DNA from: Deltaproteobacteria bacterium
Lineage (GTDB): Bacteria > Desulfobacterota > Dissulfuribacteria > Dissulfuribacterales > JALVPX01
Assembly (NCBI GenBank): GCA_027061625.1
Contig: JAMOVF010000147.1
Span: 1-25,667, forward strand
Direction of reading: 5' to 3'
Length of the DNA stretch: 25,667 bases
The position numbers and the translations under genes were made by a program. Position 1 is the stretch's first letter, and each line of letters begins with the position of its first letter. The notes under the pieces are model-generated. The model did not search any database and was not told the DNA's origin. It was given only the letters and a program-made list of their open reading frames with translations. Shown piece after piece: positions 3,757 through 7,268 of this stretch.

Positions 3757-4104
3757 TTATTTATGGCAAGTCTTGCAAGTCTTACCCTTTTTTACCTTCA
3801 TTTCCACATGACAGGGCCAGCAAAATTTTTTATGAAAGTCATTGGACATACCCTTTAGCTTTTTTATTTCAACTTTAAGCGCTCCGCCCTCAGGACTTTT
3901 GTGGCATTTCACGCACTTCAATTTTTTCTGATGATTCCTATGTGGAAATATAACGGCCTTTTTCTTCCCCTTTATTGAGTATTTTGCCTTAAGATCTATT
4001 GTTTCAGGCCCATTTCCACTGGAGGCAGGCCCGATCTGAGGCATTAATAGAGCAATTGAAACCGAAATAAGTGCAATTATAAGAAATAGCAAACTTTTTT
4101 TCAT
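3757..4104 (-). CDS. Periplasmic triheme cytochrome c, c7/PpcA-like (class III)
   Basis: Signal peptide; three CxxCH motifs (CVKCH, CWPCH, CKTCH) and three further His (FPHRNH, DFH) for bis-His ligation; very Lys-rich; GGGGG Shine-Dalgarno. Confidence 0.88.
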   Translation of the reverse strand: MKKSLLFLIIALISVSIALLMPQIGPASSGNGPETIDLKAKYSIKGKKKAVIFPHRNHQKKLKCVKCHKSPEGGALKVEIKKLKGMSNDFHKKFCWPCHVEMKVKKGKTCKTCHK

Positions 4105-4133: not shown

Positions 4134-5066
4134 CTAAATATTGGCTACTGCCGCTGATGCCTGTTTACTGGATACGTTCCAATAACGCCTTTTAACCACG
4201 TTCTTGTCCTGTTCCACTACTTCATAATTATCGGCATCATTTAAAATGGCCTGTAAAAGTTTGCTATGCAGCATATGGCCACTCTTATATCCCTGGACAT
4301 GGGCAATCATGGGCATACCTATAAGATAAAGATCTCCTATCAAATCAAGCACTTTATGTTTTACAAATTCGTCAGGGAAACGAAGGCCTTCTTCATTTAT
4401 TATAGAGCGCTCACTCAACACCACTGCATTTTCCAAAGATCCACCAAGGGCAAGGCCGTTCTTCTGCATCATTTCTACTTCCTTAAGAAATCCAAAGGTC
4501 CTGGCCCTAGCTATTTGATCTTCATAGACCTGTTCATTAATAACACCAGAAAATTTCTGCCTGGCAATCATAGGATGATCAAAATCGATCTCCAGTGTTA
4601 CTGTCATTACATCGCAAGGCTCTGCACTTATAAACGAATCGCCGTTTTTAACAGCAACCGGTTTTAAAATCTTCAAATAACGCCTGGATTGAGCCTGCTC
4701 TTTTTTACCAGCTTTTTTGAGCAAAGCGACAAATGAATAGGCGCTTCCATCTATAGCAGGAACTTCTGGTCCATCCAGTTCAACAATGGCATTATCAATT
4801 CCGACACCTGCAAAGGCTGACATTAAGTGCTCTATAGTAGACACTGTGGAATTACCGATGCCTATTGTCGTGGCGAAACGGACATCTGTAACATATTGAA
4901 TTCGGGCTGGGATCAAGACCTGAGGCTCAACATCCTTTCTTAAAAATCTGATGCCAGAATTTACTGGTGCTGGCTTGATCCTTAACTTAACTTCTTTGCC
5001 TGAATGAAGCCCGATTCCTACCAAAGTTATATTTTTCTTTATTGTATGCTGGAGAGATGAATTCAT
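4134..5066 (-). CDS. lpxC: UDP-3-O-acyl-N-acetylglucosamine deacetylase
   Basis: QHTIKK...GIGLHSG, TIEHLMSA, EVPAIDGSA, IARARTFGF, HKVLDLIGDL zinc motifs, SGHMLH. Confidence 0.97.
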   Translation of the reverse strand: MNSSLQHTIKKNITLVGIGLHSGKEVKLRIKPAPVNSGIRFLRKDVEPQVLIPARIQYVTDVRFATTIGIGNSTVSTIEHLMSAFAGVGIDNAIVELDGPEVPAIDGSAYSFVALLKKAGKKEQAQSRRYLKILKPVAVKNGDSFISAEPCDVMTVTLEIDFDHPMIARQKFSGVINEQVYEDQIARARTFGFLKEVEMMQKNGLALGGSLENAVVLSERSIINEEGLRFPDEFVKHKVLDLIGDLYLIGMPMIAHVQGYKSGHMLHSKLLQAILNDADNYEVVEQDKNVVKRRYWNVSSKQASAAVANI

Positions 5067-5095
5067 TATTATCTCCGTTTTGTTTTCAAATTAAA

Positions 5096-5193
5096 CAGGA
5101 GGGTTCCAAAAAGCAGCTCCCTATCCTAAATGCCATTTGTTTAGTTCCCAATCTCCCCAAAGGCACTGTCTATCTATTTTTGGAGCCCTCCTG
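5096..5193 (-). other. Candidate structured 5' leader RNA of lpxC
   Basis: 17-nt inverted repeat with one mismatch: 5096-5112 CAGGAGGGTTCCAAAAA and 5177-5193 TTTTTGGAGCCCTCCTG. It encloses an inner stem (5131-5139 with 5158-5165) and lies between the predicted sigma54 start site and the lpxC RBS. Confidence 0.45.
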
Positions 5194-5212
5194 ATTTGTG
5201 AATTTTTTATAC

Positions 5213-5226
5213 GCAAATAACGTGCC
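5213..5226 (-). promoter_or_regulatory. sigma54 (RpoN) -24/-12 promoter facing lpxC
   Basis: Minus strand GGCACG-TTAT-TTGC, matching GGCACG-N4-TTGC with exact GG-N10-GC spacing; predicted +1 near 5201. Confidence 0.8.
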
Positions 5227-5254
5227 CTCAACCCCGCAGCCAAAAAAAACATAA

Positions 5255-5267
5255 AATCAAATGGTTA
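5255..5267 (+). promoter_or_regulatory. IHF binding site
   Basis: AATCAA-ATGG-TTA matches WATCAANNNNTTR and is preceded by an A-tract (CAAAAAAAACATAA). It sits between the -24/-12 element and the palindromes. Confidence 0.6.
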
Positions 5268-5297
5268 ACTACAGGGAGAAAAACACATCATTATACG

Positions 5298-5349
5298 TGA
5301 GACATAAAAGCCTCACACATATCATGCAATATGAGACTTTTTTGTCACT
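5298..5349. promoter_or_regulatory. Tandem palindromic sites, candidate upstream activator sequences for a sigma54 enhancer-binding protein
   Basis: TGAGAC-ATAAAA-GCCTCA (5298-5315) and TGAGAC-TTTTTT-GTCACT (5332-5349); consensus TGAGAC-W6-GTCTCA; 34 bp apart. Confidence 0.6.
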
Positions 5350-5434
5350 TCAGGGATCAGCTCAATGAAATCGCGCTTGAACATGGAATAGCTAATTTTG
5401 AGGGATAATTTATGATTAAAATAAAATCCGGAAT

Positions 5435-6373
5435 TCAGCTTGATAGGCCCAGCCTTTTTAAGGCACGCTCATCTTTTGACCAATCCTTCAAGACTTTGAC
5501 CCATAAATCAAGAAAGACCTTTTTATTTAAAGCCCTCTCTAGTTCTTCTCTGGTGAGTTTGCCGACCTTTTTAATAAATTTCCCTCCTTTTCCTATAATA
5601 ATTCCCTTTTGAGAAGGTCGTTCTACATAGATAACTGCCCTTATGCGCAAAAGATTTTTCTCCGGCACTTCTTCTATATCCTCCACCTCTACAGCAGTAG
5701 AATATGGCACTTCCTGTTCAGCCAAAAGGAAGATCTTTTCCCGTATCAGCTCTGCGACCATGTCCTCAAGTCTTTGATCAGAAGTAGTAGAGCGGTCATA
5801 ATATTGCGGACCTCTAGGTAGAAGGCTCAATATTTCATCAAGGACTCTATCTATCCCGCTCATATATTTTGCAGAGATAGGAATTATTGCTTCAAAGGGA
5901 AAAAGCTCTTTAAAAGAATCAATAATAGGCAACAATTCTGTTTTTGGAATCCTATCCACCTTATTCAGAACCAATATTACTGGTGCACCCACTTCCTTTA
6001 AGATGTCAAGGATAGCAAATTCCTGGCCGCGTTTCCTACTGGTTACGTCAACAACAAAAAGCACTATATCCACATCTTTTAAAGCATTGAGAGCACTTTC
6101 TACAATGACCTTGTTGAGCAGGTGTTTTGATTCATGAATACCTGGAGTATCCACAAAGACTATCTGAAAGTTGTCACCTGTTAAAATTCCTCTGATTTGC
6201 CGCCTGGTAGTCTGTGGTTTAGGGGTTGTAATGGCCACTTTTTCGCCTAAGAGAGCATTCAATAGTGTAGACTTGCCCACATTAGGCGCACCAATAATGG
6301 CAACAAAACCAGATCTGAAATTTTCACTAGAATTAGGATTTGAGTCTGGAGGGTAAGGGTCAGATTCTGTCAT
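5435..6373 (-). CDS. era: GTPase Era
   Basis: GFVAIIGAPNVGKSTL (G1), PQTTR (G2), DTPG (G3), NKVD (G4), KH domain SQKGIIIGKGG; follows rnc. Confidence 0.97.
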   Translation of the reverse strand: MTESDPYPPDSNPNSSENFRSGFVAIIGAPNVGKSTLLNALLGEKVAITTPKPQTTRRQIRGILTGDNFQIVFVDTPGIHESKHLLNKVIVESALNALKDVDIVLFVVDVTSRKRGQEFAILDILKEVGAPVILVLNKVDRIPKTELLPIIDSFKELFPFEAIIPISAKYMSGIDRVLDEILSLLPRGPQYYDRSTTSDQRLEDMVAELIREKIFLLAEQEVPYSTAVEVEDIEEVPEKNLLRIRAVIYVERPSQKGIIIGKGGKFIKKVGKLTREELERALNKKVFLDLWVKVLKDWSKDERALKRLGLSS

Positions 6374-6391: not shown

Positions 6392-7105
6392 TTAAATATT
6401 CTTGTCTTTTAAAGAACCCAATGCCTTTCGTGCAGCATCCTGTTCTGCTTCTTTTTTGCTATGACCTTTTCCTATTGCAAGCTCTTTGCCTTCAAGCTGT
6501 AAAGAGACTGTAAAGTGGCGGTCATGGGCGGGACCGACCACCTCCACTGTCTTATAACTTGGAACAGCATGGAATTTTGCTTGGGTGACTTCCTGGAGTG
6601 TGCTTTTATAATCTTTATCCAGGCCGCCATTTTCCACCATATCTAACAATTCACCAAAAACATCTTCTACAAATTTAAAGGCCTGCTCAATGCCGCCATC
6701 TAGATAGATGGCTCCTATCAAGGCCTCAAAGGCATCTGCAAGGATGGAAGGTTTTTCATGGCCGCCGCTTTTTTCCTCTCCGTGACCAAGCCTCAAGTAG
6801 TCGCCAAGCTTCATTTTCTTTGCCAGGCTGGATAATGTAGATTCATTGACCAGGGAGGCCCTCATCCTAGTGAGTTCTCCCTCTTTGAATTGTGTACCAA
6901 ATCTATCATAAAGCAGCTTACTAATGACTAACTCCAATACTGCATCTCCCAAAAATTCTAGTACTTCATAATCTGGAACATCTGGGCCATGTTCAGCAGC
7001 ATAAGATCTATGGGTTAGGGCCTGTTCAAGGAGTGGCTTATCTGAAAATGTATAATTCAGTTCCTTCTCCAATTGTTTCAAAGGCTGTTTAGAATCATCG
7101 GTCAT
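6392..7105 (-). CDS. rnc: Ribonuclease III
   Basis: ALTHRSY, LEFLGDAVL signature, ADAFEALIGAIYLDGG, dsRBD DYKSTLQE...GHSKKEAEQDAA. Start placed at ATG 7105 (MTDDSK), downstream of GAGGAG. Confidence 0.96.
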   Translation of the reverse strand: MTDDSKQPLKQLEKELNYTFSDKPLLEQALTHRSYAAEHGPDVPDYEVLEFLGDAVLELVISKLLYDRFGTQFKEGELTRMRASLVNESTLSSLAKKMKLGDYLRLGHGEEKSGGHEKPSILADAFEALIGAIYLDGGIEQAFKFVEDVFGELLDMVENGGLDKDYKSTLQEVTQAKFHAVPSYKTVEVVGPAHDRHFTVSLQLEGKELAIGKGHSKKEAEQDAARKALGSLKDKNI

Positions 7106-7268
7106 GTGTCGCTGGCAGATCTCCTCATATGGGAAACATTCAATATCAATTATTTTGTAATTCTTTAACAAAACTATGAAACAGGGACAAGTGCGATATG
7201 GACATCACCTTGATTTCCAGACCAGGTTCTGGCATCCTGGGCTAAATTTATCAGCGAGGTTGTTAAAG

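Follow-up and report, generated by a model that had tools for sequence, protein, structure and literature searches.

LpxC catalyses the committed, rate-controlling step of lipid A synthesis; E. coli regulates it chiefly through proteolysis. At the glnAp2 promoter, two NtrC dyads lie about three helical turns apart, near -140 and -108, ahead of a -24/-12 promoter. Alphaproteobacterial NtrX is not known to require sigma-54. In Aquifex, NtrC4 is reported, in work by Vidangos et al. from 2014, to bind two sites upstream of lpxC, at -145 and -85 from the gene start; no mention of NtrC4 together with lpxC was found in the literature searched.

The regulators of lpxC have been described in Desulfovibrio as DVU2931/DVU2934 and Dde_3000/Dde_3003 (PMC3333781, PMC4045070, PMC4641369). 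The lpxC gene of D. vulgaris (DVU2917) is the single DAP-chip/EMSA target of DVU2934 (PMC3333781; listed in PMC4641369). Mutation of the kinase Dde_3000 in D. alaskensis G20 raises the expression of lpxC and of no other gene; a sigma-54 site and an upstream activating sequence (UAS) centred at -101 precede this lpxC (PMC4045070). The sequence-only reading of the present locus had mentioned a sigma-54 activator of lpxC in D. vulgaris, which is correct (PMC3333781) and extends to G20 (PMC4045070). Rajeev et al. noted that in S. fumaroxidans the orthologous regulator operon comes immediately after lpxC, and suggested that orthologues in other organisms could recognise this target through another motif (PMC3333781); their Table S9 lists no T. 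yellowstonii orthologue of DVU2934 (PMC3333781). Outside this group, Bordetella PlrP, a DUF4390 protein, acts with the NtrYX-family kinase PlrS as the third component of an NtrYX-type system, as judged by genetics (PMC13001219). In an ntrYX mutant of R. sphaeroides, lpxC mRNA is increased 8.8-fold, an effect that was judged indirect, and no NtrX site was found at lpxC (PMC7240162).

The window, i.e., the whole 25,667-nt stretch of DNA that was analysed, corresponds to contig C147; the metagenome-assembled genome to which it belongs is fragmentary (878 kb in 167 contigs, 45% G+C). The regulated gene is lpxC, encoding UDP-3-O-acyl-GlcNAc deacetylase (4134-5066, minus strand; Pfam LpxC, 363.7 bits). 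Upstream of it lies era (5435-6373, minus; Pfam MMR_HSR1 and KH_2), separated by a spacer of 368 bp and preceded by rnc (6392-7171, minus strand). The longest era ORF begins ~17 codons before the point from which all homologues align, which makes a later start codon probable. A c7-type cytochrome gene (3757-4104, minus) follows only 29 bp after lpxC and may thus share its sigma-54 transcript. Beyond it, bioC-like, bioD and bioA genes are found on the same minus strand.

The era-lpxC spacer carries a sigma-54 core promoter, GGCACG-TTAT-TTGC, on the minus strand at 5226 to 5213, exactly where it had been read from the letters alone, with the -24 GG at 5226/5225 and the -12 GC at 5214/5213. The extended site GGGCACGTTATTTGCG (5227-5212, minus) matches 10 of the 12 specified positions of TGGCACG-N4-TTGCW, and the string GGCACG-N4-TTGC occurs a single time in the 878-kb assembly. 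By the usual convention, with some 12 nt between +1 and the C of the -12 doublet, transcription is predicted to start near 5201. A GG-N10-GC element scoring at least 8/12 against TGGCACG-N4-TTGCW is present upstream of lpxC in all 29 same-order loci with era-lpxC synteny; LpxC itself was found in 40 of 41 related genomes. The phylum was surveyed with 100 sampled genomes of at least 90% completeness, from 80 of which the lpxC upstream region was taken. Of these 80 genomes, 49 have a strong element (at least 9/12) no more than 300 bp from lpxC, against none on the opposite strand (0/80). The genome also encodes the sigma factor on which the sequence-only reading depends: rpoN is complete, as a 492-aa ORF on contig C114 with AID, CBD and DBD domains.

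Two dyads are located further upstream. The proximal one, TGAGACATAAAAGCCTCA (5298-5315, no strand), is centred at about -106 from the predicted +1, and the distal one, TGAGACTTTTTTGTCACT (5332-5349, no strand), at about -140, both inside the range of some 80-150 bp expected of enhancer sites; their centres are 34 bp apart. The description of both as TGAGAC-W6-GTCTCA-like palindromes thus stands as to position and spacing, but the right arm of the second is GTCACT, not GTCTCA, so that TGWGAC-W6-GTCWCA is the better consensus. Nearly all of the 29 loci have dyads of this type ~114 and ~80 bp ahead of the -24 GG, with the members of a pair 33-36 bp apart, and the -114 and -80 distances are fixed across 11 families. 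An alignment of the spacer within the genus places the conserved blocks exactly at the dyads, the promoter and the leader. Both parts of the expectation that promoter and dyad motifs would be kept at lpxC in relatives are thereby borne out for the order.

The motif also proved usable for a regulon search, which was run on the assembly and on 41 genomes and returned almost only lpxC. A weight matrix built from the relatives' dyads ranks 5332-5349 first and 5298-5315 second in the whole assembly, both being among its 55 training sites. The strict pattern GWGACWWWWWWGTCWC, which the distal dyad TGAGACTTTTTTGTCACT fits, has 29 matches in the 41 genomes: 21 upstream of lpxC, five inside lpxC (all from one family) and three elsewhere. 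Its reversed control pattern gave 13 matches in the same genomes. A looser dyad pattern, GNGAC-N6-GTCNC, was dropped as too noisy, with one-off matches elsewhere. With 26 of 29 strict matches at or inside lpxC, and the top two weight-matrix sites in front of it, the regulon defined by the motif appears to be lpxC alone, as a sequence-based prediction. The unique promoter string, the top-two matrix ranks, the conservation in 29/29 relatives and the bias of the strict pattern towards lpxC put the joint motif set far beyond chance, which is excluded as its source.

A separate observation concerns family f4 (loci L027, L031, L035 and L021), where a near-perfect dyad copy, GGTGACAAAAAAGTCACA, lies inside lpxC itself, at about nt 421-441 of the coding sequence. 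It corresponds to the codons for G-D-K-K-V-T and is kept in three genera. This intragenic copy may serve as a downstream activator site, or codon choice may have produced it by coincidence.

Between the promoter and the dyads, an IHF-like site, AATCAAATGGTTA (5255-5267, plus strand), matches all specified positions of WATCAANNNNTTR and is centred at about -60 from the predicted +1. The consensus IHF site that had been read here is therefore exact in the window, but it is only partially conserved in relatives. Perfect matches to WATCAANNNNTTR were found in four of the 29 loci (0.3 expected), and if one mismatch is allowed, 10 of the 29 loci match (4.7 expected), with eight matches at the same offset; most loci are without one. 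Genes of the HU/IHF family are present in the genome, and their best models are IHF alpha and beta, with scores below the NCBIfam cut-offs.

Downstream of the predicted start, the lpxC leader would be 135 nt long (5067..5201, minus) and would contain a long hairpin (~5096-5193) ahead of a GGAG ribosome-binding site. Its predicted folding has an MFE of -35.3 kcal/mol (z -2.7). The hairpin is almost invariant across three genomes of the genus, and no counterpart was seen in other families or in Rfam; an Rfam scan of 4900-5600 at E <= 10 returned sub-threshold chance matches only. Since the hairpin is better conserved in the genus than the LpxC protein (78-86% identity), and far better than the rest of the spacer, its conservation suggests a functional RNA element.

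The activator had been predicted to be encoded elsewhere, and a candidate can be named on contig C149 (23110-24483), its connection to the dyads being a probable one. This protein, EBP1 (P0001), has a receiver domain with D53, a Walker A motif, the GAFTGA motif and a Fis-type HTH (HTH_8). Its best NCBIfam model is NtrX (NF051870), at 519 bits; this is below the 600-bit equivalog cut-off, and the protein is therefore called NtrX/NtrC4-like rather than NtrX proper. Among proteins of solved structure, Brucella NtrX (5m7n) and Aquifex NtrC4 (3dzd, 367 bits) are its best relatives, and the DNA-binding domain matches the NtrC4 DBD entries 3e7l and 4fth with E 7e-10. NtrC4 outscores NtrC1 for EBP1, and the reverse is true of the other two receiver-type EBPs. 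The operon on C149 (L187) has the order mltA, a DUF4390 gene (81 bits), a gene for a 766-aa HAMP-PAS-HisKA-HATPase kinase, and EBP1. This kinase falls below the NtrY_N Pfam model, which an orthologous kinase matches. A search around the activator operon in this assembly gave no UAS-like site, hence no sign of autoregulation here. Because the operon is on another contig and has no UAS upstream, the link between activator and lpxC inside this genome is indirect. Nevertheless, EBP1 is the most likely activator of lpxC, and the comparative evidence that points to its family is as follows.

A clear EBP1 orthologue is present in 72 of 101 phylum genomes, separated from paralogues by E values of at most 5e-146 against at least 7e-129. 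In at least 20 phylum genomes from many families, the orthologue gene follows lpxC on the same strand at a distance of 2.5-6 kb. Six of seven lpxC-orthologue regions that were fetched read cleanly as lpxC, DUF4390, NtrY-like kinase and EBP. The clusters with this order are L182-L184, L186, L188 and L189 (genomes G044, G130, G042, G114, G065 and G048); the sensor system may share a transcript there with the gene it controls, a set-up that would produce positive feedback. The orthologue and a strong sigma-54 site at lpxC also tend to occur together: the site is present in 47 and absent in 20 of the genomes with the orthologue, and present in 2 and absent in 11 of those without it (Fisher p = 3e-4, a figure inflated by relatedness). 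Among the sampled genomes that lack the orthologue, four encode LpxC as a fusion, in which it follows either a receiver domain or a sigma-54-type AAA+ module with lid (L148, L149, L151 and L154, in G070, G123, G047 and G134). None of these four has a strong sigma-54 site upstream. In the G070 fusion, HTH-like residues were read by eye just before LpxC, with no Pfam match.

The recognition helix of the activator varies together with the dyads. It starts with ERRHL in this order, where the half-site is TGWGAC. Family f17 has a TRRNL helix with the same TGWGAC half-site, as predicted before its genes were fetched, and family f22 has ARRNL with GAGAY; the pairing of xRR[HN]L with TGWGAC or GAGAY half-sites is thus seen in three lineages. 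Elsewhere in the phylum, dyad variants of the form TGTGNC-W6-GNCACA are found, and the helix is ERSHL wherever the half-site is TGTGTC, TGTGGC or TGTGCC. An Arg/Ser switch in the helix tracks the half-site, giving a lineage-specific, readable operator code. Family f9 (G011, L024 with L040; G020, L041) has APRHLHRK in place of ERRHLHRK, and in G011, the only f9 genome whose upstream region was read, the dyads are atypical (AGCGAC...GTCTTT and AGGGAC...GTCTTT); these changes are a further hint of co-evolution. Synteny, co-occurrence, helix/half-site covariation, the receiver-LpxC fusions and the reported binding of NtrC4 upstream of Aquifex lpxC together tie the activator family to lpxC.

It is likely, on these grounds, that lpxC is transcribed from an enhancer-dependent sigma-54 promoter that is activated by a dyad-bound NtrC-family protein, probably the one encoded on C149, perhaps with the help of IHF. 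In such a mechanism, RNA polymerase with sigma-54 would sit on GGCACG-N4-TTGC (5226-5213) as a closed complex, and two activator dimers would occupy the dyads. A bend near the IHF-like site would bring the assembled ATPase ring to the polymerase, and ATP hydrolysis would open the promoter for a start near 5201. The membrane-bound NtrY-like kinase encoded just upstream of EBP1 would phosphorylate the activator, and the DUF4390 (PlrP-like) protein, from the gene preceding that of the kinase, would modulate the kinase in turn. The signal sensed is probably the state of the envelope. We infer activator binding, the start site and the role of IHF from the sequence, and this promoter may be the only one of lpxC. 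Against the mechanism stand the 20 phylum genomes that have an EBP1 orthologue and no strong sigma-54 site at lpxC, the two relatives with the UAS and no clear orthologue, the partial conservation of the IHF site and the different motif of Desulfovibrio. The architecture proposed in the sequence-only reading is supported, with the dyads, the IHF-like site and the -24/-12 element in the proper order, and with the dyads and the -24/-12 element kept order-wide.

The promoter and the dyads might be real and yet be served by another EBP, one of the ~15 seen in relatives and unassembled here. Only four EBPs are assembled in this genome, compared with 10-21 in relatives, and a clear EBP1 orthologue was not found in the relatives G028 and G038 (99% complete), both of which keep the UAS. 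G034 and G036, the g21 genomes beside G038, do carry an orthologue, however, and the synteny of EBP1 with lpxC, the co-occurrence, the covariation of helix and half-site and the receiver-LpxC fusions favour the EBP1 family, so that we regard activation by a different EBP as quite improbable. The dyads could also be classical repressor sites, or sites of some other non-EBP protein, or the whole motif set could be a product of chance in an AT-rich spacer. Dyads of the GAC-N6-GTC type are simple, and one-off matches are met elsewhere. Such an origin is close to negligible in view of the distances fixed in 11 families, which mark an enhancer position and not an operator, the near exclusiveness of the motif to lpxC, and its covariation with the EBP helix.

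An explanation of another kind would modify the enhancer-dependent reading and is compatible with it: most lpxC expression might come from transcription running through from rnc-era, or from a sigma-70 promoter that escaped recognition, with sigma-54 providing a conditional boost. As is generally known, lpxC is essential in most Gram-negatives. The era-lpxC order is kept throughout the order, and no terminator-like site was found in the spacer between the two genes; moreover, the Desulfovibrio system has been described as fine-tuning. On the other hand, a simple sigma-70 scan of the lpxC strand gave weak matches only (9/12), the sigma-54 element is universal in the order and widespread in the phylum, and the G20 kinase mutant alters lpxC strongly (PMC4045070). 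Expression mainly by these other routes is considered rather unlikely.

If the enhancer-dependent reading holds, the control point of lpxC, here and across a large phylum, appears to be two-component-gated transcription via sigma-54. What is added to previous knowledge is a lineage-specific operator code, a candidate sensor system (DUF4390, NtrY-like kinase and NtrX-like activator) and evidence for a single-gene regulon. This picture unites Desulfovibrio DVU2934, Aquifex NtrC4, the envelope phenotypes of NtrYX/PlrSR and the essentiality of rpoN in some deltaproteobacteria, and it is testable. As a tentative idea, which we hold to be possible while leaning slightly against it, DUF4390-NtrY-NtrX could be an ancient module dedicated to lipid A homeostasis that acts directly on lpxC first of all, and often on nothing else. 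It may do so via a sigma-54 promoter (in this phylum, in Desulfovibrio and with Aquifex NtrC4) or through a receiver fused to LpxC. If this were true, the failure to delete rpoN in Myxococcus and Geobacter could stem from an essential gene having a sigma-54-dependent promoter, and there would be a pointer to the essential target of Bordetella PlrSR.

Compared with the Desulfovibrio systems, the locus resembles that of DVU2934/Dde_3003 in having an NtrC-family response regulator with a cognate kinase (here a candidate) and a sigma-54 promoter at lpxC. Further features in common are a palindromic UAS some 100 bp ahead of the transcription start (here predicted) and lpxC as the only target (here by motif). 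The order of lpxC and regulator genes that Rajeev et al. described for S. fumaroxidans resembles the phylum clusters found here. The operator itself is different: Desulfovibrio has one validated site of the form GTGTG-N5-CACAC, whereas two TGWGAC-W6-GTCWCA sites are present here. A scan for the Desulfovibrio-type motif in five candidate phylum genomes gave no match, nor did the published G20 promoter and UAS patterns in the scanned genome contigs. The TGWGAC-type dyads at lpxC fit the proposal of Rajeev et al. that the motif may differ at a common target. An HD-GYP regulator has been described in the DVU operon; here a DUF4390 gene precedes the kinase.

The order DUF4390, NtrY-like kinase, NtrX-like regulator is like that of Bordetella PlrP-PlrS-PlrR and Rhodobacter NtrYX, and the NtrYX/PlrSR systems likewise have a physiology related to the envelope. 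Unlike alphaproteobacterial NtrX, the activator proposed here keeps GAFTGA. Aquifex aeolicus NtrC4, as reported, shares the lpxC target and the two-site design in a different phylum. With glnAp2 and the IHF-assisted sigma-54 promoters, the locus has in common the spacing and position of two dyads, the -24/-12 promoter and, as a prediction here, an intervening DNA bend; it is set apart from glnAp2 NtrC by another regulator specificity, and by a target in the lipid A pathway instead of nitrogen assimilation. Control of lpxC through sigma-54 has already been shown by experiment elsewhere, and the present locus has an operator code of its own.
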